A stretch of DNA of 64,000 bases from an uncultured Gammaproteobacteria bacterium (lineage in GTDB: Bacteria > Pseudomonadota > Gammaproteobacteria > UBA9214), in assembly GCA_963753755.1 (NCBI GenBank), contig CAVWDM010000005.1, forward strand, positions 138,559 to 202,558. Reading direction: 5' to 3'. Every line of letters starts with the position of its first letter. The first letter of the stretch is position 1. The position numbers were made by a program, and so were the translations under genes. Below are positions 24,307 through 53,271 of this stretch, one piece after another. The notes under the pieces were generated by a model. The model saw only the letters and a list, made by a program, of their open reading frames with translations, did not search any database and was not told the DNA's origin.

Positions 24307-24316
24307 GATCTTCAGG

Positions 24317-31796: not shown

Positions 31797-31816
31797 TATA
31801 TAACCCTATATAACCC
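31797..31816. repeat. perfect tandem duplication TATATAACCC x2 in the nirB-nasT divergent intergenic region
   Basis: Two adjacent 10-bp copies in a region that is otherwise >60% GC. Confidence 0.6.
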
Positions 31817-32905: not shown

Positions 32906-32911
32906 TAAATC

Positions 32912-34882: not shown

Positions 34883-34884
34883 GA

Positions 34885-36318: not shown

Positions 36319-36361
36319 TTTTTTTATTCACACACTTCCATAGTGAAACAGGAGAGAGTCG

Positions 36362-36952: not shown

Positions 36953-36990
36953 AACGTCGGCATTACTTTTTAACAGACAGGAGAGCAGAT

Positions 36991-37407
36991 ATGCTTACAA
37001 CGGAACAAATCAAAATGGTGCAGTATTCCTGGGCGCAGGTGGTACCGATAGCTGACAAGGCAGCAGAGCTGTTTTACGGCAGGTTGTTTGAACTGGACCC
37101 CACGCTGAAACCCATGTTCAAGGGCGATATGGTCGAGCAGGGACAGAAGCTCATGCGCATGATCCACATTGCCGTCGATAATCTCGACAAGCTCGATGAC
37201 ATCGTACCGGCGGTACAGGACCTTGGCGTGAAGCACCTCGAGTACGGCGTGAAAAACTCCCACTATGACACGGTGGGCGCGGCCTTGCTGTGGACGCTGG
37301 GACAGGGACTCGGCGATGCGTTTACAACAGAGGTCAGGTCTGCCTGGACCGAAGTCTACGGACTGCTGGCCAGCACCATGAAGGATGCGGCCAGGGAAGC
37401 GGCCTGA
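36991..37407 (+). CDS. single-domain globin (bacterial haemoglobin-like)
   Basis: 138-aa globin fold sequence (…QYSWAQVVPIADKAAELFYGRLFELDPTLKPMFKG…VKHLEYGVKNSHYDTVGAALLWTL…). Confidence 0.7.
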   Translation: MLTTEQIKMVQYSWAQVVPIADKAAELFYGRLFELDPTLKPMFKGDMVEQGQKLMRMIHIAVDNLDKLDDIVPAVQDLGVKHLEYGVKNSHYDTVGAALLWTLGQGLGDAFTTEVRSAWTEVYGLLASTMKDAAREAA

Positions 37408-37426
37408 TTTTAAGTAAGCGGTCTCT

Positions 37427-37596
37427 GCAGCAGACACGATCCGTCTTTCCACTGTAAACAGGACAACAGCGCAAGATGCGTTGAACACTCAAAGGACGGC
37501 CACAGGGGAAGGGCAGCCAGTCATCCAGCCGCCTGGATCCCGGTCTTTGCCGGGGTGATGAATCAGCGCGTGTGTTGACATGATCGTGTCTGCTGC
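37427..37596. repeat. pair of 16-bp perfect inverted repeats (GCAGCAGACACGATC / GATCGTGTCTGCTGC) separated by ~140 bp
   Basis: Left arm 37427-37441 and right arm 37582-37596, inside the 470-bp globin-nrtA intergenic region. Either MITE-like or a long-range leader RNA stem. Confidence 0.55.
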
Positions 37597-37882
37597 AAGG
37601 CCTGGTCTTCATTTACCGCGCCTGGCGTCATTCAGCACCTGAAGTTCCCGGGGAGCTTTCCGGTATCGCCCTGGACGGTGTTGCTAATGATGCACCGCGC
37701 TGGTTGCATGTTGCACCATATGGGTGCGAGTTGCCGTTGGCTTTTCCATTCTCTCATTTTGTCTCCAGCCAGATCAGTCACATACGTCGTTGGCACGGAA
37801 CCTGCTAATAACCTTGTAGACAGGCTGCAATGAGGCAGTGGAGTGTACAGATGGTGCACTCATTAATTAACTGGGGAAGGAG

Positions 37883-39292
37883 ATGTACATGAAGATCAAG
37901 CTGGACTGGACATCGCTGGCTAACGTGGGCCAGCGCATGCAGCGATCACTGTCGGCTGTTGCCGTTATGGGCCTTATGGTGGTTGCCCAGCACCCTGTCA
38001 TGGCAGGTGAGCTGGAAAAGGAAGATCTGAAATTCGGCTTTATCAAGCTGACTGATATGGCGCCCCTGGCGATTGCCTACGAGAAGGGGTATTTCGAGGA
38101 TGAGGGTCTGTACGTCATGCTGGAAGCGCAGGCCAACTGGAAGGTGCTGCTGGATCGTGTCATCGATGGTGAACTGGATGGTGCCCACATGCTGGCCGGT
38201 CAGCCACTGGGCGCAACCATCGGTTTTGGTACCAAGTCGGATATCATTACCGCGTTCAGCATGGACCTGAACGGTAACGGTATTACGGTCTCCAACAGTA
38301 TCTGGGAGCAGATGAAGGAGCACGTCCCGCACCAGGACGGTAAGCCCGTTCACCCGATCAAGGCGGATTACCTGAAGCCGGTGGTGGATAAGTATATCAA
38401 GGAAGGCAAGCCCTTCAAGATGGGCATGGTGTTCCCGGTCTCCACGCATAATTACGAGCTGCGCTACTGGCTGGCGGCTGGCGGTATCCACCCCGGCTTT
38501 TATGCCCCCGAAAGCGGTGATATCACCGGCCAGATCGATGCCGAGGCGTTGCTGTCCGTGACACCACCACCCCAGATGCCATCGACAATGGAGGCCGGCA
38601 CGATCTATGGCTACTGCGTCGGTGAGCCCTGGAACCAGCAGGCCGTATTCAAGGGCATTGGCGTACCGGTGATTACCGATTATGAGATCTGGAAGGACAA
38701 TCCCGAGAAGGTCTTCGGTGTTTCAAAAGAATGGGCTGAGGAGAATCCGAATACCCACAAGGCGGTACTGAAGGCGCTGATCCGGGCCGCGATGTGGCTG
38801 GATTCCGGTGGTCTGGAAAACCGCAAGGAAGCGGCGAAGATCATGTCGCGCCCGGAGTATGTTGGTGCTGACTACGAAGTGATTGCCAACAGCATGACCG
38901 GTACCTTCGAGTACGAAAAGGGCGACAAGCGCTCGGTACCTGATTTCAACGTGTTCTTCCGTTACAACGCCACCTATCCGTATTACTCGGATGCTGTCTG
39001 GTACCTGAGCCAGATGCGCCGCTGGGGACAGATCGGCGAGTACAAACCGGATAGCTGGTATATGGACACGGCGAAGCAGGTGTACCGCCCGGATCTGTAT
39101 GCCGAGGCCGCTGAGGAACTGATTGCCGAGGGCAAGGCGAAGGCGGAAGACTTTCCTGATTTTGCCAGCGAGACCGGGTTCCGTGCGCCGCAAACAGAGT
39201 TTATCGATGGCATCACCTACGATGGCACCAAGCCAAATGCCTACCTTGCACAGTTCCCGATAGGCCTGAAAGGCGAGGACAAGGTGAACTGA
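37883..39292 (+). CDS. nrtA: nitrate/nitrite ABC transporter periplasmic substrate-binding protein (NrtA/CmpA family)
   Basis: Signal peptide plus NrtA-family sequence, followed by permease and ATPase genes. Confidence 0.75.
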
Positions 39293-39370
39293 TCAGTACA
39301 TGCCGTTGGCCATTGGCCCGCACGCCACCCCGTGTGCGGGCCTTTTTTAAATGAGCGAGTAGAGGGTGAT

Positions 39371-40337
39371 ATGTGTACGGAAACGATGAAGATATTTCAG
39401 CTGCAGGACTACCAGGAGGCCGCCAGGGCATTCTTATTGCCACTGATCGCCTTTCTCCTGTTTCTCGGCTTGTGGAGTTTTGCAGCATCACGCATCGAGA
39501 CGTCACTGGGGCAGTTGCCCGGACCTGCAGCGGTCTGGGAGCAGGCGAGTAATCTGGTCGCTGAACACCGTGCAGGAACGCGACAAGGCGCTTGCCTTTA
39601 TCGAGCGTCAGGAAGTGCGCAACCAGGCAAAGCTGGCGAAAGACCCGAGCGCAGAGGTACGCATCCGTCCCTATACGGGCAAACCGACCTTCTTTGACCA
39701 GATCGGCACCAGTCTGCTGACCGTGTTTACCGGCTTTCTGCTGGCAACGGTCATCGCGGTGCCGCTGGGTGTATTCACCGGCTTGAGCAGTAATGTTTAC
39801 CGGGCAATCAATCCGATTGTGCAGATCTTCAAGCCGGTGTCGCCGCTGGCGTGGCTGCCGATTGTCACCATTATCGTCAGTGCCGTTTATGTCACCGATG
39901 ACCCTATGTTTTCCAAATCCTACGTGACCTCCGCCATCACCGTCACCCTGTGTTGCCTGTGGCCGACCCTGATCAACACGGCGGTCGGTGTGTCATCCAT
40001 GGATCGGGACCTGGTGAATGTCGGCAAGGTGCTGCGCCTTGGCTGGTTCACCACGGTATGGAAGATTGCGTTGCCCTCGGCTGTTCCGATGATCTTTACC
40101 GGTCTGCGCCTGAGCCTGAGTATTGGCTGGATGGTGCTGATTGCAGCGGAGATGCTGGCACAAAATCCGGGGTTGGGTAAATTCGTCTGGGATGAATTCC
40201 AGAATGGCAGCTCCAATTCGCTGGGCCGCATTATGGTGGCCGTGTTTACCATCGGACTGATCGGATTCTTGCTGGATCGCATGATGCTGCTGCTGCAACG
40301 TCGTGTGTCCTGGGACAAGGACGCTGTATTGCGCTAG
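39371..40337 (+). pseudogene. nrtB: nitrate ABC transporter permease NrtB, N-terminus frameshifted
   Basis: The N-terminal TM segment is in ORF 39332..39697 and the rest in 39480..40337 in another frame; junction at about 39540-39560 (...GPAAVWEQA... then ...[19 protein letters not shown]...). The downstream part is a typical ABC permease (EAA-like region). Confidence 0.7.
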
Positions 40338-40381
40338 TGCCGAAGCGGCGTGCCACAGAATCAGATTTATTAAGGGAGTGA

Positions 40382-41263
40382 GTGATGAGTGATAAATATC
40401 TGAATATTGATCACGTGTCGATGGTGTTCGACACACCTGCCGGACCGTTCAAGGCGCTAGATAACGTCGACCTGGTGATCGCAAGGGGTGAGTATGTCTC
40501 GCTGATCGGTCATTCGGGTTGCGGCAAGTCGACGGTACTGAATGTCGTTGCTGGTTTGTTGCAGGCCACCACAGGCGGTGTGGTGCTCGATGGTACCGAG
40601 GTCGATGAACCCGGCCCCGAGCGAGCAGTTGTATTCCAGCACCATTCGCTGATGCCATGGCTGACGGCCTATGAAAATGTTGAACTGGCCGTTCAGCAGG
40701 TATTCAAGGGAAAAAAGAGCAAGCCCGAGATGCGCGAATGGATTGAATACAATCTGAAGCTGGTGCATATGGAACATGCCATGGATAAATTACCCGGTGA
40801 AATCTCCGGCGGCATGAAACAGCGTGTCGGCATTGCACGCGCACTCGCGATGCAACCCAAGGTGTTGTTGATGGATGAGCCGTTCGGTGCACTGGATGCG
40901 CTGACGCGTGCACACATGCAGGATTCACTGATGGAAATTCAGAACGAACTCGGCAATACCGTGATCATGATTACGCATGATGTTGATGAAGCGGTACTGT
41001 TGTCTGATCGAATTGTCATGATGACCAATGGTCCGGCAGCCACCATCGGGCAGATTCTTGACATCAAGCTGGAGCGACCGCGTAACCGCGTTGCCCTGGC
41101 GGATAGCGCCGAGTACAACCATTACAGGGCGGAAGTGCTGAAGTTCCTCTATGAACGCCAGCGCAACCCCGAGTCGGGAGATAGCAATAGCAGGAAGGAT
41201 AATGTGCAGGGAAGCGCGGAGGACAAACCGTTACAGGTGGTTGCCGGTATTGCCGCCGCCTGA
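40382..41263 (+). CDS. nrtD: nitrate/sulfonate/bicarbonate ABC transporter ATP-binding protein (NrtC/NrtD-like)
   Basis: Walker A GHSGCGKST, ABC signature LSGGMKQRVGIARAL, Walker B LLMDEPFGALD. Confidence 0.8.
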   Translation: MMSDKYLNIDHVSMVFDTPAGPFKALDNVDLVIARGEYVSLIGHSGCGKSTVLNVVAGLLQATTGGVVLDGTEVDEPGPERAVVFQHHSLMPWLTAYENVELAVQQVFKGKKSKPEMREWIEYNLKLVHMEHAMDKLPGEISGGMKQRVGIARALAMQPKVLLMDEPFGALDALTRAHMQDSLMEIQNELGNTVIMITHDVDEAVLLSDRIVMMTNGPAATIGQILDIKLERPRNRVALADSAEYNHYRAEVLKFLYERQRNPESGDSNSRKDNVQGSAEDKPLQVVAGIAAA

Positions 41264-41432
41264 GGGCGGTAATAGTCACTTTTTAATGTTCGTAGCTGTT
41301 CACAATGTTCTAGTAACATTGTATATGTAGCATAAATCGATCGCACTTGTTCATGACCATTTTGGCAGCAAGTTCGTACAGCGTCCGTACGAGCAATTCC
41401 TGCCCATTCCGATTTTTGTAGGAGAACGAGTC

Positions 41433-41880
41433 ATGAAGATCGATACACCGAGCGCACGCAGCAAACTGTCTCCCCGTCGAGAGCCATTTGGTGTGCCCTG
41501 GGAAAGGGCAAGTCCATCGGTTACCGTGCCGCTTCCGGCCCTTGGATCGTACGCTGACGGTATCAGGCAAGCCCGGCACCCACGACATGGTGCTGTCCAA
41601 CGAGGCCAAGACATTCTTTAACACACAGGCACAGGACAAACTCCCGAAGGCGTTGCTATTAAAACCTGATGGAGGTTTCAGTGGAATCGTAATCACGTGG
41701 GGAGGTGCTGCAAAGAGGCTGAACAGACGGAGTATCACAACACACCCGAGTAATTCCTCACCCAACCCCCTGCTTGACGAGCTGGGGAATATTATTATAC
41801 CTGTCCAGTTACCCCCCCACCCGATGTTGGACTCAATTATCCCCTGTAGATTGATGAACGTGGAAGTTCACAAATCGTTA
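41433..41880 (+). mobile_element. decayed tyrosine-recombinase (phage-type integrase) N-terminal remnant, marking the left border of an acquired low-GC region
   Basis: Spread over two frames: MKIDTPSARSKLSPRREPF | WCALGKGKSIGYRAASGPW..., matching the lambda-like integrase N-terminal pattern (LTPREKDYFVWD..LKGFGVRV.PSG.K.Y..QYR). No catalytic domain follows. GC content drops sharply after 41290. Confidence 0.45.
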
Positions 41881-41891
41881 AGTGACAGGAG

Positions 41892-42077
41892 ATGAGCATG
41901 AAAGGCATGCAGCCACAAATGACCGAGTTCGGTGACTGCCTCAGCGAGTTGACTGATGTGGGTCCGTTGGGTGGTGCTGTACTGACTAATGAAGTCAAAA
42001 AAGGAAATCTGAGAGCCAAGAAGTATGGCTCGAAGGTGATCGTTCTGCCCTACGACTACAGGGTTTTCCTTGAGTGA
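41892..42077 (+). CDS. excisionase/AlpA-like HTH DNA-binding protein
   Basis: 61 aa; ...LSELTDVGPLGGAVLTNEVKKGNLRAKKYGSKVIVLPYDYRVFLE resembles Xis/MerR-type excisionase domains (…G.L.A.K.G.KWRI…FLE). Confidence 0.45.
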   Translation: MSMKGMQPQMTEFGDCLSELTDVGPLGGAVLTNEVKKGNLRAKKYGSKVIVLPYDYRVFLE

Positions 42078-42316
42078 CTGCCTGATGCACAGGTGGAAGC
42101 CGTGCCAGACACACGGGCGGAAGCACTGTCAGCTACGCGGGCAAGAGGCGGAGGGAAGAGAAGTCGCTTCAGTGAATATTTCATTGTTGTTTCTTCTTCA
42201 TTGTCCATATGAAAAATTAGAAACATGACAATGCAAGCACATGAATTGGATGTTGTTTTCCTGTTCTTTATCCGCTTCGCGCTCATCATGGATGCGCTGA
42301 TTAGTGTTAACAGGCC

Positions 42317-42922
42317 CTAAGGCACTGCAAGCTGTACTGTGCAATTACGTTGCTGGGCTTCTTGGTATAATTCTTTACCAAGTCGAACGACTAGCTGTTC
42401 GTCCAATGCTGGAATGTCTACGGTATTATGAATAGGAATAAATCCTCCACTTCGAAAAAAAATAACATCCCTTGAGCGTTGCCGCTGCTCGCTGTATCGT
42501 CCTGGCGCAAGGCGACTAAAGCGAAGTAAGGTTCTTCCAATATAAACACATTCTGCTTCTGCAGGAACAGTGAACCTGATATTTGCAGGAATTGTTATAC
42601 GGCCTTGGTCCAGTTCCGATGCCATAATCTCAACTGAATCGACTAGATATTCCCCTGGTGGCAAAGAAATGGTGAAATTAAAATGTCCCTCACGCTTATC
42701 TTTCTCCCGAGAGGCTGACTCAAAACCGCTCCAGCCACGCTGTAAGTCATTGACAAGCTGTTGTCGGTACTGGTGGTCGGTGTCACGCGATACAATTACC
42801 AGGGTGACCTCCATCGAGGTTGGTGGCAGCACTGCGCGCTCTTCCGCAAGGTAGAACATGAAGGCCATGGTACCAAGTACGTGTTTCGATCTTCTCGCCT
42901 GTCGTTGCTGCTCATCAAGCAT
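42317..42922 (-). CDS. hypothetical protein within the acquired region
   Basis: 201-aa ORF with protein-like composition; I could not recognise any domain. Confidence 0.3.
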   Translation of the reverse strand: MLDEQQRQARRSKHVLGTMAFMFYLAEERAVLPPTSMEVTLVIVSRDTDHQYRQQLVNDLQRGWSGFESASREKDKREGHFNFTISLPPGEYLVDSVEIMASELDQGRITIPANIRFTVPAEAECVYIGRTLLRFSRLAPGRYSEQRQRSRDVIFFRSGGFIPIHNTVDIPALDEQLVVRLGKELYQEAQQRNCTVQLAVP

Positions 42923-43702
42923 CTTTTGCTTTTGTATGTCATCAGTTTTTTGTATCGACTCAAGCCATTTCTTCTCTCCAGGTCTCAGAGCAGTTGACGA
43001 TTCTTGGTCCTTCGAAATAGGCGGAGGCGAAATCTCTACAGTTTCAGTATCAGTGCCGCATGGCTGGTCACTGAAAAATACTTCTCCTGCAGGACCTGTA
43101 CACTTGTAGACCGTAGCATTAGTTACGAGAGGGAAGCTAACGAGAATCGAAAAACCAATCGTTTAATGAAGCCGAAGACCCAGAAGAATTGCTGGGTAAT
43201 ATACTGATTAAAATAACATCTCACTCGCAACTGAACGTTAGCCTCATCAATCACCGCCCCCGGCACCATCCCTTTTGTATTCGTTGCTGTATTCATCATT
43301 AGAGGCCTGCATTTTTTAAATTTCCAGTTCAACGCCTCTAGTAAAGAGTAAACCGCATTTCCTGTAACTACCTATTCTAAATGGCCGTCATTGATAACGC
43401 CTAGGAGCTGGCCTGGGTTGGCCGGGGTTGACCGTACGCAACAAAGCCAATAGCTTGCTCTGATAGTTCAGCGAACAGCCAGTACCGGTCTATTAAGGAA
43501 GTTCCTGCGGTACGTGCAAGTGATTTCTGCTGAGTGGGAAAGTCGACCCATATATGGCAATTAGTGGCAAATGGCTAGAGCTAGTCTACGCTTATGTTTA
43601 AAGGCAGGAGACGACCTACCCAGATGCACGGCATTTATTGATATATACCTACCGGGTGTATGCTTCCGAAGCCATTCAAATATATTGAAGGAGGAATCAC
43701 TG

Positions 43703-44308
43703 ATGAAAGGAATACCAGTAAAAACTACCAGACTTTCTAGTTTTTCATTGTTCGCTGCTGCTGCGTTTGCCTGCTCTTCGCTACCCGGACATGCTTCCAA
43801 GCTCACGGCCACAGCCGACATCAAAGGTTGTACCGACTTCAGTATTTCAGGGAGGGCTACACTCGGGGAAGAAGTGACGGACGAAGGTATAAAGGAAGTC
43901 ACTGTCCATCTCAAGGTAGAGGGTATGTCCGATGGCAAGCATGCGGTGCACATTCATGAAACGGCCGCCTGCGAGCCCTGCAGCGCTGCCAATGGCCACC
44001 ACGACCCAGGACCTTTCGGGCAGACGCGTCCGGACAGTGCGGGTGACACTGTTCCGGCAACAGACATCAATCACCCTTATCATATGGGTGATCTCATCAA
44101 CATCGAGGTGAAGAATGGCAGGGGCACCATGAAGCATACGAGCAACCGGGTGACCTTGTCGGCGGGCCGTCTCAGCCTGTTTGATGCTGACGGCAGCAGT
44201 ATCATCATTCATACCAATGAAGATACCTACTGCGACGAGGAAAGTGATCTCAAGAAAGGCTGTGCAGGTGGTTCGCGCGATGCCTGCGGAATAATAGTGG
44301 CTGATTGA
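43703..44308 (+). CDS. sodC: periplasmic Cu/Zn superoxide dismutase (SodC family)
   Basis: GGAGGA RBS and signal peptide (MKGIPVKTTRLSSFSLFAAAAFACSS). Cu/Zn ligand pattern HAVHIHE...GHHDP...HMGDL...IIIHT...GGSRDACGII. Confidence 0.7.
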   Translation: MKGIPVKTTRLSSFSLFAAAAFACSSLPGHASKLTATADIKGCTDFSISGRATLGEEVTDEGIKEVTVHLKVEGMSDGKHAVHIHETAACEPCSAANGHHDPGPFGQTRPDSAGDTVPATDINHPYHMGDLINIEVKNGRGTMKHTSNRVTLSAGRLSLFDADGSSIIIHTNEDTYCDEESDLKKGCAGGSRDACGIIVAD

Positions 44309-44594
44309 AATTGGCTGGTGAGGGTGGGTTTTAATCCTAATCCTTTTTGACCCTTTGACATTGGCCGGCAATATTTTTCATGGCGAGCCGATATGATTGC
44401 AGTATTGAGATGTCGTCAGTCATAACTCGTTATTGAACAGTACGACCCCGTATTTTTCAGCGCGATCACGGCCTTTATTATGGTGCTATATACCCGAAGC
44501 TGGCCGACAGTCGATAAACAGGGGCACTAAACTAGATTATATTCTGTGCGGACGTAATGTCTTACTTACCCCGAACTAAGACCTGTATACTGCC

Positions 44595-44966
44595 TCATAG
44601 ACCAGCTGGTTGAATGCAACGTTCGTCATTATTCTTTGGTGAATTCACCCAGGTGTTAACGGGGTAAGCGGTCAACTGGCTGGATGGGGCAGAGTTCAGG
44701 TACTGCATGATCTCTTGCTTGTCAGTGATTATTTCATCAAGCCAGTAGTCATAATGCGCGGGCGCAATAATTGCGGGCATCCGTTCATGGATCGGTTTCA
44801 TTGCCTCGTTGGATGGTGTGCTGATAATTACACAATTATTTAATGATTCACTCTCGTCTTCCCAATGATCCCAGAGGCCAGCCCCTGTCTGTGGTCTGGC
44901 CGAGGCGTGAGCTGGGAAGAGTTGGGAGAGGGGGTAAAAAGAACGGCGGCCCAAAGGGGGAAGCAT
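44595..44966 (-). pseudogene. truncated SOS-response-associated peptidase (SRAP/YedK, DUF159) C-terminal fragment
   Basis: ...NNCVIISTPSNEAMKPIHERMPAIIAPAHYDYWLD...AYPVNTWVNSPKNNDERCIQP matches the SRAP C-terminal half. The N-terminal catalytic Cys2 region is absent. Confidence 0.5.
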
Positions 44967-45190
44967 TAGGCCGCCGTGTATTACTAAAAGACCCGTGATG
45001 AGTCACACCTAGATGCTAGCCTGATGCTGGATCAGAGAAGCATATCGCATTAGTCAAAAATACGTCATAGGCCAGCGTCACTGTCTGCGATCTATCATAA
45101 AGAGGGAGAGTACGTTTCGTAATTTTCGGCCTCATTCCGCCCCTTACTTCATGTTCAGCGCTCGTTGACATGTGATTGGTGGTGTGGCAT

Positions 45191-45280
45191 CTGTACGGAC
45201 GTCCGTACAGGGTCCGGATGCCAGAATTTTTGTTAGAAAAACACCCAATAACAGAAAACGTCCGTACGGTGTCCGTACAG
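45191..45280. repeat. cluster of GTCCGTACRG sites, including a perfect 20-bp palindrome CTGTACGGACGTCCGTACAG
   Basis: Palindrome at 45191-45210; further copies CGTCCGTACGG (45259-45269) and TGTCCGTACAG (45270-45280). A related copy, CGTCCGTACGAG, lies ~40 nt upstream of the integrase remnant (41382-41393). Confidence 0.6.
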
Positions 45281-45428
45281 AACGCTCTAAAAAATGCAAC
45301 CTAATGAATTAAGGGCTTAATGTATGAGGGTGTGCGACTGTTCGCTGTCGCCTGAGGGCGGTACCTGGCGAATCAAAACAGCCGGCGTTGCCGGGAAGAA
45401 CTTGCGGGTGTCAACATGACACACCGCA

Positions 45429-45833
45429 TCAGTGTGCCAACTTGTCTTTTTCGCTGAGCTTGAGCTTGCAATTTGTGTTGGTAGAGATCGCCAGTATCGC
45501 GACATAGCCAATGACGGCCATGAAGCCTATATAGGCATAGATTGACATGGCATTCTTGTAAAAGACTGCAATATTGAGTGCGCTGATAAACAGCAGAAGT
45601 AATAGTATTTTCAGTGCACAGGCGATCGGACACCTTTTTGCGCGATGTGTGAGTTCGTTGATAAAGCCTGGCATATAGCCTCCATTTCCTCTTTCTGTGT
45701 TCATGTGATACGACTCCGTCAGCTTTGGAATGTAGGTCAGTGAAATCAGCCGGTCAGGCCGATCCAAAGCCAGTATAAAAACAGGGGCACCACGGTCACG
45801 ACTACAACCATTAATAGCGCTGCCAGCGAGCAC
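45429..45833 (-). CDS. possible small two-TM membrane protein
   Basis: The C-terminal ~80 aa are strongly hydrophobic. Low-GC context and no recognisable homology. Confidence 0.2.
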   Translation of the reverse strand: MLAGSAINGCSRDRGAPVFILALDRPDRLISLTYIPKLTESYHMNTERGNGGYMPGFINELTHRAKRCPIACALKILLLLLFISALNIAVFYKNAMSIYAYIGFMAVIGYVAILAISTNTNCKLKLSEKDKLAH

Positions 45834-46272
45834 CTCAATAAATCATCACAGGCCATGTTTCACCTCATAGGAATACTTAAATAATCATAAATTCATTATA
45901 TAACTGAATACTGATTAGTCAACTGAAACAAATCAATGTCGTCGATAACTGTGACGAGATTCGCTGTCAATATAATGTCGTCCAGAACCGTGCAACTGGC
46001 ACGGTTCGCATGCCATACAGCACAGGCAGGTATCGTGCCAGCCAGGCAAATTCCGATATGAAAAGCGTTAATTACAGCAAGCTGCAAGTCTGAAACGATT
46101 ATCAGCCACGAGAGAAATGCACCCGTGTGGTTCAATAAAGACTCACCCTGCCATATGAGGGTGCACGGTCGCTTACAAACCAGTGAGTAACTGATTGATT
46201 TTGCAGTGCGCCATGATTGGCACCATTCATGCCTGTCTTTTGTATATCAAAAAGAGAGTATGAGGACGTGTC

Positions 46273-47394
46273 ATGTCTACCAGAACCAGTCATGGTTACC
46301 TGCCTGCAGGACGTTATGTCGTTAATCATGACATCATGCATTGCACCGCCGAGGGTGTTGAGGGCAATGATCTTTATTCAGGTCGTGCACTCGGGCTTAG
46401 CGAACCGGAAGATTTCATCCAGCTGCACCCGGTGCTCAAGCCCCTGTGGAGACACATCGCGAGTCATTATCGCCGTATCGGACTGAGCCATAGTGAAAGC
46501 GTCATCTGGGACCTTAGCCGGGAGCAACTGTCTCGACATGCGGGATACGAGCCGTCCGTGTTTTATTTCGGGCCAAGTGAATGCAAGGCCTGGAACGATC
46601 CGCAATGGCTGGAGACTGTCGAGTTTATCAACTCGAAAAACAATTTCATGGCGCTTGCAGAACAGCTGGGTATCGATGTGCCGCACTCGCAATGTTTTGC
46701 CAGTGTCAATGACATCACCGAGATGGACATCATTGCGTTCAGTATGCCCTGCTACCTGAAAGCGGCGATATCTGTTTCCGGAGTCGGTATCTATCGTTGT
46801 GCCAACCGCGAGGAACTGCGTGATGCGATGAAAAATTTCGCAGCCGATATGCCGGTACAAATGCAGGAAGAAATCAGAACCGACGTGTTTCTCAACCTGC
46901 AGTATCGTGTCATTGACGGTCAGCTTGTACGCCTGGCCGCAAGCGAACAAATACTGCAGGGCTGCGCCCACCAGGGTAACCGTTTTCCGTCCAGCCATGA
47001 GCCATGGAGTGCCATCGAACCGATGGCACTCTGGCTCAAGGAGCGTGGTATGAAAGGTATCTTTGCCTTTGACCTGGCACTGGTTAGAACAGCAGAAGGT
47101 GGTATTCGTTTCCCCGCCATTGAATGCAACCCGAGGTTCAACGGTGCTACCTATCCAACCGTCATCGCGCAGAAACTGGATATTCCGGAATGGAGTGCAA
47201 TAACGTTCAAGACTCGCTACCGAAAACTGTCCGACCTGGATATCAGGGATGTCGAGTTTGATATGAGCACAGGGGAGGGCATGGTCATCGTTAATTGGGG
47301 CACCATACTGAAGGGCAAACTTGTGGTGTTGCTGGCGGGGTCACCCGACTACCAGGAGGCGCTGCGAAACGAGTTGCTGTACCGCCTGGGATAA
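46273..47394 (+). CDS. ATP-grasp family ligase (stand-alone, 373 aa)
   Basis: C-terminal ATP-grasp Mg/ATP motif ...AIECNPRFNGATY (E-x-N-x-R) and central-domain-like region. GC (~52%) is lower than the core genome. Confidence 0.5.
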   Translation: MSTRTSHGYLPAGRYVVNHDIMHCTAEGVEGNDLYSGRALGLSEPEDFIQLHPVLKPLWRHIASHYRRIGLSHSESVIWDLSREQLSRHAGYEPSVFYFGPSECKAWNDPQWLETVEFINSKNNFMALAEQLGIDVPHSQCFASVNDITEMDIIAFSMPCYLKAAISVSGVGIYRCANREELRDAMKNFAADMPVQMQEEIRTDVFLNLQYRVIDGQLVRLAASEQILQGCAHQGNRFPSSHEPWSAIEPMALWLKERGMKGIFAFDLALVRTAEGGIRFPAIECNPRFNGATYPTVIAQKLDIPEWSAITFKTRYRKLSDLDIRDVEFDMSTGEGMVIVNWGTILKGKLVVLLAGSPDYQEALRNELLYRLG

Positions 47395-47466
47395 TCATCT
47401 TTTCCGGGAATCCTGTGCGCTGATGTGTGACAATGCGCGAATGCAACATCACGAACGGGACAAGAC

Positions 47467-48408
47467 ATGAGTGGTACCGGCAGCTATTCCCTGATGGTTC
47501 ATGGCGGGGCGGGTGCGCTCGATAACGTCCGGGACGATAAAACCGCATTCCGTTACCTCGATAGTATTCGCAGAACACTCGAACATGGCCGTGATGTCAT
47601 GGAACTGGGTGGCTCGGCACTGCAGGCGGTGGAAGCCTGTGCGTCATTACTGGAGGACGACCCGGTGTTCAATGCCGGTTGCGGTTCGGTACTCAACGAA
47701 AACGGCAAGGTCGAGATGGACGCCGCCATTATGGATGGCCGTGACCTGTCGGCCGGCGCCGTTGCTGCCGTCGATAACATTGCCAACCCGGTACAACTCG
47801 CACGTCTGGTCATGACCGAAAGCGAGCACGTCATGCTCATTGCCGAGGGTGCCATGCGCTTTGCCGATCATTGTGGCATGCCGCGTGTACCCGAGGACTA
47901 TTTCTATACCACTGACCGCGTCGAACAGCTTCGCCAGGCACGCCTGCACCACAAGATCATGCTCGACCATGATGACACAGAGGAAGACACGGAAGACCAG
48001 AAATACGGCACCATTGGTGCCATTGCCCGTGACCCGCAAGGGAATCTGGCTGCTGCAACATCCACCGGCGGCATTGTCAACAAGCGGATGGGACGCGTTG
48101 GCGATTCCCCGATCATCGGTGCCGGTGTGTATGCCGACAATGAGACCTGCGCCGTCTCTGCAACGGGTTTTGGCGAGGACTTCATGCGTTCCGTCATTTC
48201 AAAAACGATAGCGGATTTCATGTTCATGAAAGGTATGGACGCAACACAGGCAACGGCAGCCGGCATCGAGTACCTGGTGCGCAAGGTCAAGGGACGCGGC
48301 GGCGTTATTGTCATCGATCATGAAGGCAACTGCAGCAGCGGTTTTACCACCAAGAAAATGATTCACGGCTGGATTGAAAAGGGTGGCGAGACCTGTTGCC
48401 GTTTCTAG
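47467..48408 (+). CDS. isoaspartyl peptidase / L-asparaginase (Ntn-hydrolase, asparaginase_2 family)
   Basis: N-terminal VHGGAGA, Ntn nucleophile region GTIGAIARD, and ...TSTGGIVNKRMGRVGDSPIIGAGVYA. Confidence 0.75.
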   Translation: MSGTGSYSLMVHGGAGALDNVRDDKTAFRYLDSIRRTLEHGRDVMELGGSALQAVEACASLLEDDPVFNAGCGSVLNENGKVEMDAAIMDGRDLSAGAVAAVDNIANPVQLARLVMTESEHVMLIAEGAMRFADHCGMPRVPEDYFYTTDRVEQLRQARLHHKIMLDHDDTEEDTEDQKYGTIGAIARDPQGNLAAATSTGGIVNKRMGRVGDSPIIGAGVYADNETCAVSATGFGEDFMRSVISKTIADFMFMKGMDATQATAAGIEYLVRKVKGRGGVIVIDHEGNCSSGFTTKKMIHGWIEKGGETCCRF

Positions 48409-48926
48409 GCCACTGACCGGGTTGTCGATGGCCGATCGATCCGGCTTTAGAGTCCCAGATTGGGGATCCGTGATTCCCCGCCTTTAGGTGGCGGGTCAGC
48501 GAGTATGTACGCATAAGATATTGAGTAGAAAAAAATATAAATAAAACGAAGAGTTCCTTCTCCCTCCATGAGAAGAATAGGAAGAGGGGGGTTAATTGGC
48601 CGAACGAACGTCGGTTTCCGGGGGCGGAGTGGTCGTTCGGCGAACGGCCTGCTTCTGCGGAATAATCGGCATCTTATATGAATATTGACACCCGCCACGT
48701 CCCGGGCTTTTTCATGTTTAACTCGGGAGTTCAGCATATGTGATCACGTTCAAGTCCCGGCTTGGGTTCGTCGCTGTTCAGGTAGCTGTGCCCCGCAAAG
48801 AGTTGCTGTCCCTGGCCCGCCTTTTCACCCAGCTATGGGCCTCTACCCCGTCCCTTTAAGAAGACAACGCCGAGGCCATGGCAGCCTACCAGAAGCCCAC
48901 GATGGGGCTCCACCTCGCGACGTGTC

Positions 48927-51443
48927 TCAGGCCCCAGGTGCGACTTCCCAGCCACCTTCCGGCAGACGGCGCAGCACCTCACCGTCGTCGCCGACACGAA
49001 AGAGGTGCAGCCACTCGTGAGCGATCAAGTCGTGGACCATGGTATTGCCAGCGATCACATCGTCAACGGCCTCTGCCGGGGCCCCGATGAAAACGGACAG
49101 GCGCAGGGGTTCGTGCACCCATCGCCGGCCATCGTGGAGCGACTGCAGCGCCAGCCCAATGCGCAGGTCGCCGCCATTGCCTTCCAGCACGCCGATGCGC
49201 CCTCCCACGACGTTGTGGAGAACCTTGTTGCCTGCCCCCAGATGGTCGTGATCCACGGTGGAACCGTAGTACTGGAGATTGATCCAATTGGCCACCACCA
49301 TGGGGGCACTTATGATGAGTTTGAGGACCTCGAAACCCGTGTCCTGCCGCCAGTCGTACTCGTGCAGGAAGGCCCGTCCCTGAAGGGACAAGTGGGCCGT
49401 GCGTGCCCGTGGCACGGCGAAGAAGGCTGCGTTGCCGGCGAGCCCCCACTCGGGGCGGACCTGGGACCAGTCTTGGCCGCGCTGGCGCACGGCACGCAGG
49501 GCACGGGCGGCGTCGGCCGGGGGCTGCTCGCAGAGGAGCTGAAGACGCTCGAGGCGCGCGATGTCGCCCGCCCGCTCGAGGGTACTGCGCAGGCGATCGA
49601 CCGCCGCACGCAGGGTCCGTGGTATGGACGCCGTGTCCAGCAGATGCACCTCGTCTGTAGTGGTGTCGTGCAGGGCCGGCACAAACCGGGTATCGTCGGG
49701 AATCGGCTGGCCGCGTTCGGCCAGGGTTGCGCGCACAGCGGGGTCGTTCAGGATGGTAGCTGCCATGCGCACGCTCGCTTCGCCAGTCTGACCGGCGCAC
49801 GCGCCGCAGTCCAGGGCAGCGCGCTGCGGGTTGTTGACGGTGGAGCTTCCATGGCCCGCGAGCAGCACGATGGGCGCGAGGCGCGACTTGAGACCCATGG
49901 CATTGAGGATGAAGGCTGCCACGTCGGCGCGTTCGTCGCGGGGGATGCCCCAGCTGCCGTCGTCCCCAGCATCCCCCGCGGGGGCCGCGTCCAGGTCGGG
50001 ACCCAGGACAGCAATGTCGCGGTGGCTGAGTCCCGCTGTATCCGGCCGTGGCACCGGGCGGGTCCAACCCAGGCTGTCGGTGACAAGCTTGAGCAGGTAG
50101 AGAAGCCCCGCGGATTCTACGAAGGAGAAACAGGAGGCGCTTGAGAGCTTGAACTGCTTCCAGGCCCTGGACAAACCGAGGGACAGCTTGCGCCGCGCCA
50201 GCAGCGCCTCGTTGCGGGCGCCGCCGCCGTCACCAGCAGTCTCGCACACCCGGTAACGCGGTGGCAGCAGCACCGGCAGGTGAGGCCGCGAATGGCCGGC
50301 GCCCAGCGGACGGTACTCGGCCATGATGCCGAAGAATCCCGCGAAGCCCTGGGTTTCGATGGCTCTGTCGGCCGTCTCGAGGGCGCGCCTGAACACCTCG
50401 GAGCGCACATCGATGCAGAAAGCTGCCTGGATGGCCGGCCTGGGCATCTCTGCCACGGGCCGCTCTTTGCTTGCCCGACGCAGACCCGCTATCAGGCCGC
50501 GCTGGTAGCCGATCTCCAGGGCCCGTTGAAGGATCAGGTTCACCTCCAGGGCGCGCGCCTGGGCCGGGCGCAGCCGGCGTGGCCAGCAGTGGAGAGACTG
50601 CAGCCATTGCGCGCGGTGGGCAGGACGCTCACAGGTGGCCACCAACAGGGCTTCCCAAACTACGCGGATGGCCAGCAGGTCCACGATGTCATCGTTACGC
50701 CCGCCCTCCATCTCGGCCACCCAGCGCAGGTGGCGGGTATAGCTGGCCCATCCGTCAACGGTGGACAGGGCCACGAAGAGGAAATCCTCCAGCCGGTCCT
50801 GCGGCACCTCCATGCGCTCGACGGCGGCCTGGATGGCGTCCCGCGGCGAGGTCGGCAAGGTGCGCAGCGCCGCAGGCACGTTGCGGATGTCCATGCCCCG
50901 GGGGCTGCGGTCCACGCAGGTGTAGTGCCACCACGATTCGTACAGGCCGTCGCCGAAGCGCGGAAGTGGCCAGATGGCCTGGCCGAGATCGTAGTAAGCG
51001 GCGCAGAACTGACTTATCTGCTGGACCACGTAGCTGGAATGACTAGGCCGGTATCGCCCGTCGCGCATGTGGGAGTACAGGAGCTGGGGTATCGCGACGG
51101 CCACGTGCTCGTCCACCGCGGCTCGGAGCCGAGCGAGATCCATCTCGGATCCGCTGCGGGCTAAAGACTCCTCGAGATCGGTATCGGTGATACGCCCGGC
51201 GGCAATCTGCTCGCGGAACCAGTCCCGGTTCATGGTCATGGGACGCCCGATGATGCGTCTGTGGTACTCGGCCGCCGCCGCGAAATGCTCATCCACAAAG
51301 CCCAGATACGGGTTCGTGGCCACCATGGCGTCGAGGGGCCAGAAGGGTGCGAACCGCGCGCAGACGGCGTCCACTGCCGGGTCGGTCCAGCGTTCAGTCT
51401 GTCCGGGGGCGACAGCCGCTTCTGGCGCAGTTTGGTCCGTCAT
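48927..51443 (-). CDS. dabA: DUF2309 protein DabA (putative CO2-hydrating subunit of DAB complex)
   Basis: 838-aa DUF2309-like protein; partner dabB immediately upstream with overlap. Confidence 0.75.
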   Translation of the reverse strand: MTDQTAPEAAVAPGQTERWTDPAVDAVCARFAPFWPLDAMVATNPYLGFVDEHFAAAAEYHRRIIGRPMTMNRDWFREQIAAGRITDTDLEESLARSGSEMDLARLRAAVDEHVAVAIPQLLYSHMRDGRYRPSHSSYVVQQISQFCAAYYDLGQAIWPLPRFGDGLYESWWHYTCVDRSPRGMDIRNVPAALRTLPTSPRDAIQAAVERMEVPQDRLEDFLFVALSTVDGWASYTRHLRWVAEMEGGRNDDIVDLLAIRVVWEALLVATCERPAHRAQWLQSLHCWPRRLRPAQARALEVNLILQRALEIGYQRGLIAGLRRASKERPVAEMPRPAIQAAFCIDVRSEVFRRALETADRAIETQGFAGFFGIMAEYRPLGAGHSRPHLPVLLPPRYRVCETAGDGGGARNEALLARRKLSLGLSRAWKQFKLSSASCFSFVESAGLLYLLKLVTDSLGWTRPVPRPDTAGLSHRDIAVLGPDLDAAPAGDAGDDGSWGIPRDERADVAAFILNAMGLKSRLAPIVLLAGHGSSTVNNPQRAALDCGACAGQTGEASVRMAATILNDPAVRATLAERGQPIPDDTRFVPALHDTTTDEVHLLDTASIPRTLRAAVDRLRSTLERAGDIARLERLQLLCEQPPADAARALRAVRQRGQDWSQVRPEWGLAGNAAFFAVPRARTAHLSLQGRAFLHEYDWRQDTGFEVLKLIISAPMVVANWINLQYYGSTVDHDHLGAGNKVLHNVVGGRIGVLEGNGGDLRIGLALQSLHDGRRWVHEPLRLSVFIGAPAEAVDDVIAGNTMVHDLIAHEWLHLFRVGDDGEVLRRLPEGGWEVAPGA

Positions 51444-51471
51444 CTCGCCTCAACCCGTGTTTGTGGCAGGG

Positions 51472-53103
51472 TCATGAGCGCAGCCCCCCGCGACGGCCGG
51501 GCAGGTCCCTAAACCGCGCCGGCCACACCCGATAGACCATGCGCTCCACGGGCAGATCGGTATACAGTCCGTTGTAGAGGTGCACATAGAGCCGCCGTAG
51601 CCAGGGCGCGTGTGTCCCGCTGGTGAGCACGGACTGGAAGTAGGACAAGCCCAGGAATACCACCGCCACCAGTCCGAGCAGGAGATAATAACCGGCCGTC
51701 ACCTCATGCGGAATGGGGTTCAGCACGCCCGTATAGACGGTGGCGAAAACTGTATGAAGACCGAAGTAGGCGGCCGTGACCAGCGCCGACACCGCAAGCA
51801 GACGTACTGACAGGGCGGCACCCGCCGAACCAGCGAGGAGCAGCTGAGCCACAGCCACCGCGACAATGGTGCCGATGGCAACCAAAGCAGGCTCATTGGC
51901 CGGAGTGATACCCCATGCGGCGGCCATGGCAAAAGTTACGGCCGCGCTCAGGCTCACGGCGACGCCCCATGCCAGCGGCGTCACACGCTTCCTGGATTTG
52001 GAACCGGGAGCCCGCAGCAAGTCCACCATGCTGCCGGATGACAGGAAGGCATGCGCCTTGTACAGCGAGTGAGTGATGAGGTGGAGCACGGCGAGGACGA
52101 ACAGACCGAGGCCGAGCTCGAGCAGCATAAAGCCGAGCTGGCCAGCGGTGGACCAAGCCAGAGAGCTTTTGATCGCAGTCTGGGTGAGCATTGCGAGTGA
52201 CGCGAGCACGGCGGTCATCAATCCTACGAGAGCGAGTGCCACTAGGGCATTGCCGTCCGCCAGGAGCAGCTCGTGGGTGCGCAGCACGATGATGGCCCCG
52301 CTGTAAACGATGCCGGCGTGGAGCAGGGCCGATACCGGGGTGGGGGCCTCCATCACCTGCAGCAGCCACCCGTGGAACGGGAACTGGCCGCTCTTCAGGA
52401 CGGCGAAAGCGACGATCAGCCAGGCCGCGAGATGCAGCTGCCAGCTCGGGTCCCCCTCCGCCGCCGTGGCCGCGATGACCTCGAACGACAGGGAGCGCTC
52501 GCTGGCGGCGATGAGCAGCGCGGCCGATAGCAGGCAGATATCCGCCATCCGGCTGAACAGGAGCTTCTTGTGCGCCACCATCTGGGCCGGCAGCCGGTCG
52601 CGGTAATGGGTCAGCAGCTGATTCAGCGCGGTGCTAGTGAGGATGATAGCGAGACCGAACATAAGCAAGTTGCCGGCGACCACGACCAGCATGAAGGCAC
52701 TGACGGTCAGCGCCAGCGACCGGAAGAAACGACCCTGCGTCGGCTCTCCGGCCAGATAGTTGGTGCTGTAGCGTGCGATAATCGCGGCGAGCAGGCACAC
52801 CATGGCCAGTACGGTGAAGGTCAGGTTATCTGCGAGCACCGACAGCGCCACGGGGATGCGACCTGTGTCGCTGCCGAGCACGACAAGGGTGGCTGGCGTC
52901 GTGGCTTCGTACAAATTGGCCGCGAGGGCCGCCACGAGGGTGCAAAGGAGACCTGCCAGCGCGGCGATCTGAATCAGCTGACCCATGGCCAGCGGATGCC
53001 GGCCAGCAAAGGCTGCTGGCGCGGCGGCAACCAGCAGCATCAGCCCGGGGCCGAGAAGCAGCAATGCTGCAGTAGAACTGACTAGACTCTCAATCACGTG
53101 CAA
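51472..53103 (-). CDS. dabB: NuoL/MnhA-like proton-pumping membrane subunit DabB
   Basis: 543-aa PF00361-type antiporter-like membrane protein upstream of the DUF2309 gene. Confidence 0.75.
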   Translation of the reverse strand: MHVIESLVSSTAALLLLGPGLMLLVAAAPAAFAGRHPLAMGQLIQIAALAGLLCTLVAALAANLYEATTPATLVVLGSDTGRIPVALSVLADNLTFTVLAMVCLLAAIIARYSTNYLAGEPTQGRFFRSLALTVSAFMLVVVAGNLLMFGLAIILTSTALNQLLTHYRDRLPAQMVAHKKLLFSRMADICLLSAALLIAASERSLSFEVIAATAAEGDPSWQLHLAAWLIVAFAVLKSGQFPFHGWLLQVMEAPTPVSALLHAGIVYSGAIIVLRTHELLLADGNALVALALVGLMTAVLASLAMLTQTAIKSSLAWSTAGQLGFMLLELGLGLFVLAVLHLITHSLYKAHAFLSSGSMVDLLRAPGSKSRKRVTPLAWGVAVSLSAAVTFAMAAAWGITPANEPALVAIGTIVAVAVAQLLLAGSAGAALSVRLLAVSALVTAAYFGLHTVFATVYTGVLNPIPHEVTAGYYLLLGLVAVVFLGLSYFQSVLTSGTHAPWLRRLYVHLYNGLYTDLPVERMVYRVWPARFRDLPGRRGGLRS

Positions 53104-53271
53104 CCCCGCCGTCGCTGGGACAGTATGGCATGTCGCTGTCGGATACTTTGACTTAACTCTAGGCGGCTGATCCCATCAATAACAATAGATAATTTCTATA
53201 TTTTTTATCGTTTATCGACTATGGAACAGACAGCTGGGCTGTCACGATGCCATGCGTCCCCCCTCGCGGGT

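Follow-up and report, generated by a model that had tools for sequence, protein, structure and literature searches.

A predicted ATP-grasp ligase and isoaspartyl peptidase operon with sigma-54-type promoter signals, beside a decayed islet at the nrtD 3' end of an uncultured gammaproteobacterium

Genes and features at the locus

The DNA analysed here, called the window below, is a stretch of 64,000 nucleotides from an uncultured Gammaproteobacteria bacterium (assembly GCA_963753755.1, contig CAVWDM010000005.1, forward-strand positions 138,559 to 202,558). We consider the region between the nitrate ABC transporter genes nrtA, nrtB and nrtD and the dabA and dabB genes of an inorganic-carbon pump block. 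A small islet lies at the 3' end of nrtD, the gene of the transporter ATPase (TIGR01184, 339 bits), and is followed by two genes that encode a predicted ATP-grasp carboxylate-amine ligase and an IaaA-type isoaspartyl peptidase. The original prediction, made from the letters of the window, had read everything from nrtD to the dabA stop as one lower-GC acquired region. The GC trough behind that reading is real, but three separate things were merged in it: the islet, a native operon and the dabAB block. The principal features are the following:

41252-41271: left direct repeat (attL-like), GCCGCCGCCTGAGGGCGGTA, overlapping the nrtD stop codon at 41261-41263; found by repeat search and junction alignment
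45344-45363: right direct repeat (attR-like), GCTGTCGCCTGAGGGCGGTA, identical to the left copy at 18/20 positions, with a 15-nucleotide perfect core
45429-45833, minus strand: small membrane open reading frame (ORF) of the backbone; the conserved part has about 81 amino acids (aa) and starts near 45674; divergent from the ligase operon
46273-47394, plus strand: predicted ATP-grasp carboxylate-amine ligase, 373 aa, class assigned by fold
47467-48408, plus strand: IaaA/EcAIII-type isoaspartyl (β-aspartyl) peptidase/L-asparaginase, an N-terminal nucleophile (Ntn) hydrolase of 313 aa (PF01112)

A decayed islet at the nrtD 3' end

The inserted element spans 41272-45363 (4092 bp, GC 0.485), and the two 20-nucleotide repeat copies start 4092 bp apart. 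In a related genome (L008; loci of other genomes carry such L numbers), the match to window positions 41085-41269 is joined straight to the match that begins at 45349, with an overlap of about 12 bp in blastn. Junction alignment found the repeat in a single copy, i.e. an empty site, in both L008 and L004. The borders of the element are established by the direct repeats together with the empty site of L008. A low-GC acquired element is thus indeed present at the nrtD 3' end, but not with the borders first given to it: the islet ends at 45363, and the GC-rich dabAB block, whose dabA stop had been taken as the right border, is missing from relatives. A border search for direct repeats or a tRNA or tmRNA 3' end had been suggested with the original prediction. 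It returned the repeats, whereas no tRNA or tmRNA gene lies within the 64-kb window; the target of the islet is the 3' end of the protein-coding nrtD and not a tRNA or tmRNA gene. An Rfam scan of the window for riboswitches and leaders gave no match. The islet would have entered the last codons and the stop codon of nrtD by site-specific recombination. Between its repeats we find:

41433-41700, plus strand: possible N-terminal remnant of a tyrosine integrase (weak evidence), spread over three reading frames, beside the left repeat
41892-42077, plus strand: 61-aa orphan ORF, with no family match
42317-42922, minus strand: 201-aa orphan ORF (orf201), islet cargo, with the lowest GC at third codon positions (GC3) in the region, 0.416
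43703-44308, plus strand: SodC, a Cu/Zn superoxide dismutase whose N-terminus carries a signal or lipoprotein-like leader
44595-44966, minus strand: 3' fragment (pseudogene) of an SRAP/YedK-type gene

The proposed integrase remnant is spread over several frames, as had been claimed, but its support amounts to one marginal tblastn match (E = 6e-3) and no profile match. The matched sequence is the N-terminal ORF of a split integrase and lies on a Sphingomonas plasmid, immediately before a truncated 'site-specific integrase'. The peptide stitched from the three frames has no match in Pfam (E ≤ 10), in PHROGs or in a search of 5.8 billion proteins. It resembles the N-terminus of some tyrosine integrases, and the tblastn match is treated here as weak support. 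The 61-aa ORF had been described as an Xis-like helix-turn-helix protein, a description that finds no backing in Pfam, NCBIfam, PHROGs or PADLOC. The same four collections contain no match for orf201 or for the small backbone ORF, and the cluster of orf201 at 90% identity contains only two members. The other two genes had been correctly recognised. SodC matches PF00080 with 82.5 bits, and the SRAP fragment covers only positions 125-214 of the 214 of the PF02586 profile, with no N-terminal part in any frame further right of it.

The origin of sodC is distinct within the islet. Window positions 43652-44472, which hold this gene and short flanks, show 82% nucleotide identity to the chromosomal sodC of relatives (e.g. 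L173 7947-8778), where it is located near a peptidyl-prolyl isomerase gene, apaG, apaH and ksgA. The remainder of the islet has no match at that chromosomal locus. Since the sodC segment alone matches there, the islet is a mosaic. Its content thus comprises orphan ORFs, the truncated SRAP gene and the mosaic sodC, and of a recombinase it retains debris at most. The islet is probably immobile now and, as a decayed insertion, is in itself unremarkable.

The ligase and peptidase genes as part of the backbone

GTDB species genomes were scanned with an alignment of the ATP-grasp protein; 308 species matched and 80 loci were returned. The nearest loci are 78-91% identical to the window at the DNA level. 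One of them (L009) has nrtA, nrtB, nrtD, the small ORF, the ATP-grasp gene and iaaA in that order and without the islet. Four others (L004, L006, L008 and L071) retain the small ORF, the ATP-grasp gene and iaaA at the same locus, also without the islet. Because these relatives carry the pair at the locus in the absence of the islet, the pair belongs to the backbone and is not islet cargo; this was the very situation that the original prediction had named as incompatible with its acquired region. The small ORF is kept in the same five loci and is seen only in the closest relatives; its upstream frame is interrupted in L004.

Composition agrees with this separation. The 500-bp GC profile has a trough of 0.43-0.50 at about 41.7-46.3 kb against a window mean of 0.584, and the 4.1-kb windows with the lowest GC of the whole 64 kb begin at 41.9-42.3 kb (0.474-0.478, where all such windows have a mean of 0.583 and a standard deviation of 0.038). 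Within it, the 61-aa ORF, orf201, the SRAP fragment and the small ORF have a GC of 0.47-0.50, and sodC 0.53. The ATP-grasp gene (0.53) and the peptidase gene (0.57), taken as a pair (0.545, GC3 0.59-0.64), are compositionally ordinary and close to nrtA, nrtB and nrtD (0.54-0.57 each, 0.557 together, GC3 0.63-0.73). The trough extends to 46.27 kb because the small ORF of the backbone and the divergent promoter region next to it are AT-rich (GC 0.458), and the GC 'recovery' at dabA is due to the unusually GC-rich dabAB block, dabA and dabB having the highest GC of the window (0.64-0.68). The view that the pair is cargo of a single lower-GC region reaching from nrtD to the dabA stop can point to the GC of 41290-48926 taken whole, 0.503, which is below the window mean. 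It is refuted by the empty-site comparison and the direct repeats, which stop the islet at 45363, by the presence of the pair at the same locus in relatives without the islet, by the vertically widespread occurrence of the pair described below and by its nrt-like GC; we see practically nothing left in its favour.

The surroundings of the operon differ among the nearest relatives. The following features are needed here:

47396-47432: intergenic segment of 37 bp between ligase and peptidase genes, single in the window and duplicated on either side of an inserted transglutaminase-like gene in relatives (blastn overlaps)
48927-51443, minus strand: dabA, inorganic-carbon pump block
51472-53103, minus strand: dabB, inorganic-carbon pump block

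In L004, L006 and L071, sequence matching window positions 54.7-61.5 kb comes about 100-230 bp after iaaA, and the block of about 6 kb that contains dabAB (about 48656-54686) is missing. This block resembles a second, independent insertion, or else was lost in these three. On the other side, the whole nitrate and nitrite assimilation segment is gone in L008 (about 23.5-41.1 kb) and in L004 (20.5-41.2 kb), which keep just a 110-185-bp 3' stub of nrtD. Compared with window positions 23473-41085, L008 and L004 show this locus to be a hotspot for gain and loss. Between ligase and peptidase genes, L004, L005, L008 and L011 carry a 265-aa transglutaminase-like gene (Pfam Transglut_core and Bact_transglu_N; in L008 at 9222-10019), which is frameshifted in L071. 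The window either never had this gene or lost it.

Further along the minus strand of the window, positions 54748-61593 hold genes for a transglutaminase-like protein (300 aa), a circularly permuted ATP-grasp protein with an Alpha-E domain (855 aa) and a transglutaminase with a DUF2126 'putative amidoligase' (1128 aa). This three-gene cluster is a predicted peptide-ligation system and abuts iaaA in the relatives that lack the dab block; a cluster of this type is adjacent in only about 7/82 loci. Upstream of the transporter genes, at 34885-36952, two further genes stand between a nirB-like gene and nrtA: one codes for a 477-aa multihaem cytochrome c with c3/c7-type motifs, the other for a Tll0287-like protein. 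Such company is unusual for an assimilatory nitrate cluster.

Two-way linkage of ligase and peptidase

The co-occurrence of the two genes, a check proposed with the original prediction, was followed in both directions. Picking loci by the ligase gave 82 distinct loci, in which its identity to the window's protein is 52-89%. Their hosts are sulfur-oxidising Gammaproteobacteria (Ectothiorhodospiraceae, Thiogranum, Thiodiazotropha, Sedimenticolaceae, Thiothrix, Chromatiales, Thiohalomonadales and Arenicellales) and single SAR324 and Hahella metagenome-assembled genomes. An IaaA of 74-96% identity is encoded directly downstream on the same strand in about 77/82 of the loci, with a modal gap of 61-67 bp. 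Counting either orientation, the peptidase gene is adjacent in about 79/82; two loci, L016 and L046, have it next to the ligase gene in inverted orientation. In a few loci IaaA is truncated or cut at a contig end, and the contig of L080 stops right after the ligase gene. The sole locus with a full-length ligase and without an adjacent peptidase gene is L053 (249-1487). Its ligase is altered at otherwise invariant positions (NG to NW, HQGNR to HLGNR, QEE to QKE), changes that fit decay after the loss of the partner. The genes flanking the pair vary among the 82 loci, and all-against-all clustering of the neighbouring ORFs brought up no third family in more than 10 of them; nor is a precursor peptide conserved near the pair.

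In the reverse direction, 80 metagenome loci were picked by the peptidase alone. Where IaaA is at least 67% identical to that of the window and enough upstream DNA is present, the ligase gene is found in about 30/30 loci. At 55-65% identity it is found in 5/13 (three of them divergent), and at 50% identity or less in 0 of about 24. A 342-aa ORF upstream of an unpaired IaaA gene in L134 was tried as a cryptic member of the ligase family and rejected (hhalign probability 0.2%). As for the ligase, a homologue of 45% identity (L092) is still paired with IaaA, while homologues of 50%, 42% and 40% identity and fusions with a MurF-like protein have no IaaA neighbour in their loci. The contexts of five distant homologues (P0121, P0130, P0133, P0151 and P0170) contain no Asparaginase_2 gene and no informative shared partner, and the contig of P0122 holds nothing but the gene of the ligase homologue.

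These results establish a linkage that works both ways, and the linked peptidases, which share at least about 60-67% identity with one another, form a distinct clade. Since the linkage is specific, bidirectional and survives rearrangement, it argues for functional coupling of the two enzymes. The ATP-grasp gene and iaaA form a native and widely conserved bicistronic operon of sulfur-oxidising Gammaproteobacteria, in which the pair is vertically widespread. The original prediction was right that the two genes form a tightly linked module. It did not recognise the module as a described system, and no description of this pairing was found in the searchable literature.

The two predicted enzymes

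The ligase belongs to a large family, with homologues in 1247 clusters at 90% identity and 344 representatives at 50% identity, the most distant of which retain about 25-30% identity along the whole sequence. Every Pfam and NCBIfam match of the protein lies below its cut-off, and the family is without a Pfam or NCBIfam model or an assigned function. Its class is given by its fold. The AlphaFold2 model (predicted local distance difference test score 76.9) matches ATP-grasp ligases in Foldseek with a probability of 1.00, E values down to 9e-16 and template modelling scores of 0.60-0.68. The top neighbours are peptide and amino-acid ligases, namely a Streptomyces peptide ligase (8ynd/8ynq), LdmS (7r8p/7r8q), BesA (8yi6) and PGM1 (3wvq); PurK and biotin carboxylase come next in the ranking. 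At the sequence level, carbamoyl-phosphate synthetase (CPS, E = 1.5e-5) and Ddl (E = 0.01) are the only relatives detectable in a PDB profile search.

Across 26 aligned ligase sequences K163, the Gly-rich loop S167-G172, E284-x-N286 and R288 are invariant, and these motifs persist in about 100 distant representatives. By analogy with other ATP-grasp enzymes, K163 would be the ATP-binding Lys, E284 and N286 the Mg-binding E-x-N, and R288 the catalytic Arg. The invariant signature further comprises P-x-Y-L-K, Q-x-Q-E-E, F-A-F-D and E-C-N-P-R-x-N-G. R288-x-N290-G291 and an N-terminal Arg38 are invariant in the family; the Asp pocket of LdmS is R305-x-N307-G308 and its acceptor site Arg47 (PMC9486568).

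Several assignments of the ligase were tried and rejected. It is no housekeeping ligase of the RimK, GshB or Ddl type (the original prediction had named a RimK/GshB-like one as grounds for its refutation): all family scores are below cut-off (RimK 19 against 21 bits, Dala_Dala_lig_C 16.6 against 24; NCBIfam Ddl and CPS-like models 15-30 bits against 218-1027). It is not a cyanophycin synthetase (CphA) either, with 373 aa, no Mur-ligase domain and no CphA model among its NCBIfam matches; neither the PDB profile search (E ≤ 10) nor the best 50 Foldseek matches contain a CphA chain. PADLOC had no match for the pair, and a defence-system reading was rejected. Some distant relatives are fused to a MurF-like Mur ligase (843-853 aa; L085 6137-11575, L089 1186-7900). 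These fusions sit between conserved proteins of about 625 and 340 aa, in one lineage also adjacent to a Ser/Thr kinase, and look like a separate uncharacterised system with a CphA-like domain order.

The peptidase call of the original prediction is confirmed. The protein matches Asparaginase_2 (PF01112) over residues 8-306 with 350.9 bits (cut-off 27). Full-length alignments were obtained with E. coli EcAIII (2zak, E = 3e-73), its best solved relative, and with human ASRGL1 (E = 6e-68). The alignment with EcAIII establishes the catalytic residues, conserving KYG/T182IGAIA (the autocleavage site, at the slash, with the Thr182 nucleophile) and GRVGDSPIIGAG; the Asp-binding motif GRVGDSP is kept as well. 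The NCBIfam equivalog model for beta-aspartyl-peptidase, NF007589, gives 273 bits, below its cut-off of 567. By these scores the protein belongs to a subfamily separate from the E. coli IaaA equivalogs. It is without a signal peptide and is predicted to be a canonical cytoplasmic hydrolase of β-aspartyl amides.

Sigma-54 and NtrC-type signals

Upstream of the operon, and of two nitrogen-assimilation genes of the window, we find promoter signals of the sigma-54 type:

46218-46233, plus strand: sigma-54-type -24/-12 promoter, TGGCACCATTCATGCC, beginning 55 bp upstream of the ATP-grasp ATG
46118-46134: putative NtrC-like upstream activator site, TGCACCCGTGTGGTTCA, between two divergent sigma-54 promoters; 11/12 against TGCACC-N5-GGTGCA
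46025-46040, minus strand: sigma-54-type -24/-12 promoter facing the small ORF, TGGCACGATACCTGCC; also in L009 and L071
37791-37806: sigma-54 promoter of nrtA, 77 bp upstream of the gene
37712-37728: NtrC-like site of nrtA, upstream of its sigma-54 promoter
32754-32769: sigma-54 promoter of the nirB-like reductase gene (32912-34882), 143 bp upstream

The sigma-54 pattern was scored as TGGCAY-N5-YTGCW over 11 positions, with GG and GC invariant. At -50 to -98 of the ligase start, a match of at least 10/11 is present in 69/81 loci versus 0.9% of shuffles, and this was replicated in 28/31 independent loci picked by the peptidase. A NtrC-like match of at least 10/12 lies at -110 to -162 in 39/81 loci, where 0.8 are expected; the consensus is that of enteric NtrC. 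The palindrome, about 60-100 bp upstream of the sigma-54 promoter, recurs in 13/31 of the replicate loci. In the window, the central NtrC-like site is common to the promoter facing the small ORF and to that of the ligase. The pattern has six matches in the 64 kb against 1.47 expected. A simple scan for sigma-70 promoters and terminators shows nothing above shuffle expectation on the strand of the operon. With the motifs established in this way, their distribution suggests that the operon belongs to a nitrogen-limitation regulon together with the nitrate and nitrite assimilation genes.

Proposed function and alternatives

The best joint reading of these data, to which we give a probability of about 0.55, is a decayed islet at nrtD next to a native, nitrogen-regulated operon whose ligase and β-aspartyl peptidase make and break the same kind of bond. 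The operon would be transcribed from its sigma-54 promoter with the NtrC-type site, and hence be switched on under nitrogen limitation alongside the nitrate and nitrite assimilation genes of the window. The ligase would phosphorylate a carboxylate, likeliest a carboxyl of L-aspartate, and couple the acyl-phosphate to an amino compound. The product may be a small β-aspartyl amide, for which a β-Asp-X dipeptide and an N4-substituted asparagine are the two candidates. The peptidase, with a pocket for the α-amino and α-carboxylate groups of a free L-Asp and for the scissile β-amide, could hydrolyse this same linkage, and both enzymes would constitute a nitrogen-regulated make-and-break cycle. We infer aspartate as the substrate, the β linkage and a molecule common to both enzymes. 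ATP-grasp enzymes can form β-aspartyl amides, an example being the D-aspartate ligase Aslfm of Enterococcus.

Several points weigh against this proposal. L-amino-acid ligases of known activity mostly activate the α-carboxylate, and IaaA would not accept an α-linked product. The substrate assignment for the ligase is itself inferred, and the likeness of R288-x-N290-G291 to the Asp pocket of LdmS can be taken as a lead at the level of a motif and no firmer. The ligase promoter of the window scores only 9/11, with GG-N10-GC intact. The NtrC consensus used is that of enteric bacteria, and a different enhancer-binding protein could be at work. No transporter, regulator or acceptor-protein gene is conserved near the pair in the 82 loci. 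A synthetase and a hydrolase for one bond, when transcribed together, look futile unless they are regulated post-transcriptionally. A ligase that consumes nitrogen and is induced under nitrogen limitation is a paradox, and the authors of the work on LdmS remark on the same paradox for their own system (PMC9486568).

The two enzymes could also act in sequence in nitrogen salvage. When nitrogen is limiting, the peptidase would break down asparagine, or β-Asp dipeptides of isoaspartyl or cyanophycin origin, to L-Asp and either ammonia or an amino acid, and from one of these the ligase would build a different, α-linked or non-aspartyl compound. Sigma-54/NtrC control, which as established for Ntr regulons is typical of scavenging operons, suits this explanation, and so do the generic, EcAIII-like pocket of the peptidase and the α-dipeptides that characterised L-amino-acid ligases yield (PMC9486568). 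It gives no account of the two-way linkage of a dedicated IaaA clade with this ligase family, which generic IaaA (identity of 50% or less) never shows, and no uptake system is conserved nearby in the 82 loci; we consider salvage unlikely. A closer partnership has been considered too, in which the Ntn asparaginase would feed ammonia from asparagine to the ATP-grasp enzyme, which would amidate or carbamoylate an acyl- or carboxy-phosphate, much as happens between the glutaminase and synthetase subunits of CPS. The ligase profile indeed finds its best PDB sequence matches in the ATP-grasp domains of CPS (E = 1.5e-5), PurK and biotin carboxylase folds rank high in Foldseek, and an interface between the two proteins could explain why the peptidase is so unusually conserved (74-96%, the ligase 52-89%). 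To our knowledge, however, no Thr-Ntn asparaginase is an amidotransferase subunit. No fusion of ligase and peptidase exists among the 344 family representatives, asparagine would be scarce under nitrogen limitation, and the closest folds are peptide ligases and not CPS, all of which makes such an amidotransferase very improbable.

Another explanation turns on tagging of proteins or peptides: the ligase would add amino acids in the manner of RimK or tubulin-tyrosine-ligase-like enzymes, and the IaaA-type hydrolase would trim or remove the tag, in some relatives with the aid of a transglutaminase-like enzyme. A transglutaminase-like gene does lie between the pair in L004, L005, L008 and L011, the ligase has weak RimK-like sequence matches, and a logic of ligase plus peptidase is reportedly common in the predicted peptide-tagging systems of the 2009 survey of Iyer and Aravind. 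IaaA-type enzymes, as known from EcAIII, require free α-amino and α-carboxylate groups on the aspartyl residue and so act on small molecules or N-terminal isoaspartate, not on internal tags. With this, with no target or precursor gene conserved nearby in the 82 loci, and with small-molecule ligases as the nearest folds, we hold tagging to be very improbable.

Within the proposed nitrogen-regulated cycle of synthesis and hydrolysis, a more specific role can be imagined. The operon may make and recycle an undescribed small β-aspartyl compound (a β-Asp-X dipeptide or short oligomer) as a 'minimal' counterpart of cyanophycin that needs no Mur domain and serves as a buffer or signal of nitrogen status, and the ligases would then be a new functional family that activates the β-carboxylate of aspartate. 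This is speculative, and we consider it unlikely. If true, such a buffer or signal would operate in sulfur-oxidising Gammaproteobacteria, including chemosynthetic symbionts (Thiodiazotropha, Sedimenticola, Thiothrix).

The operon is of interest on several grounds. A large ligase family, of more than 1200 clusters at 90% identity and with no curated model or assigned function, is locked to a dedicated clade of isoaspartyl peptidases in ecologically important sulfur oxidisers, including lucinid symbionts and the Thiothrix of wastewater. The operon also shares its promoter architecture of nitrogen starvation with nitrate assimilation. Together, these features offer a testable handle on an unexplored part of nitrogen metabolism.

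Comparison with known systems

Like integrase-mediated islets that duplicate the 3' end of their target, the islet described here has direct repeats rebuilding the target 3' end, an empty site in relatives, a deviant composition and putative recombinase debris beside the left repeat. It differs from typical members of this class by its nrtD target, the lack of a profile-verified integrase or excisionase, its very small size (4.1 kb) and its mostly decayed cargo.

For the operon, cyanophycin metabolism (CphA1/CphA2, cyanophycinase, IaaA/IadA) had been evoked. Both have an ATP-grasp synthetase, a β-aspartyl isopeptide (predicted here), an IaaA-type hydrolase of β-Asp dipeptides and a place in nitrogen economy, and the domain order of CphA recurs in distant ligase homologues that carry a fused Mur-ligase-like module. 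However, the ligase has 373 aa where CphA combines N, ATP-grasp (G) and Mur-like (M) domains in about 600-900 aa, CphA1 forms its β-aspartyl bond with the Mur-like and not with the ATP-grasp domain, the Mur-ligase fusions in the family look more like MurF than like CphA and lack an IaaA gene next to them, and no cyanophycinase is linked to the pair in the 82 loci. Membership in CphA fails on architecture, model matches and linkage, and the cyanophycin idea survives only as an analogy.

The peptidase shares with EcAIII (IaaA/YbiK) and human ASRGL1 the fold, the autoproteolytic Gly-Thr, the Thr nucleophile and the Arg/Asp aspartate-binding motif. Unlike them, it scores below the equivalog cut-off, belongs to an ATP-grasp-linked clade and comes with sigma-54/NtrC promoter signals. 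The idea of a ligase paired with a Thr-Ntn hydrolase has a conceptual parallel in the glutathione or γ-glutamyl cycle, where the ATP-grasp enzyme GshB builds a small peptide with an ω-carboxyl amide and γ-glutamyltransferase, an autoprocessed Thr-Ntn enzyme, cleaves that bond. There, however, the linkage is γ-glutamyl and not β-aspartyl, γ-glutamyltransferase is periplasmic where the peptidase of the window has no signal peptide, and the sequences are not related beyond the superfamily.

The nearest counterpart is hmrA/ldmS of Staphylococcus. LdmS forms L-Asp-L-Met, and its gene stands in a conserved operon with that of the peptidase HmrA under control of CodY, CymR or the S-box (PMC9486568). 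In common with the present operon are the conserved pair of an ATP-grasp amino-acid ligase and a peptidase gene, the control by nutrient limitation (predicted for the present operon) and a ligase that spends the limiting nutrient; LdmS (7r8p, 7r8q), which uses L-Asp, is moreover among the folds closest to our ligase. In contrast, sequence identity is about 13%, HmrA is an M20 metallopeptidase where we find a Thr-Ntn β-aspartyl peptidase, the product of LdmS is α-linked, regulation is by CodY, CymR or the S-box instead of sigma-54/NtrC, and the hosts are Firmicutes instead of Gammaproteobacteria. The physiological logic of joining a ligase and a hydrolase is unexplained even for LdmS/HmrA. A pairing of ligase and hydrolase is therefore already known; new is the combination of an uncharacterised ATP-grasp family with a dedicated IaaA clade, which would add a β-aspartyl example to the recurring motif of a ligase plus a hydrolase under nutrient limitation.

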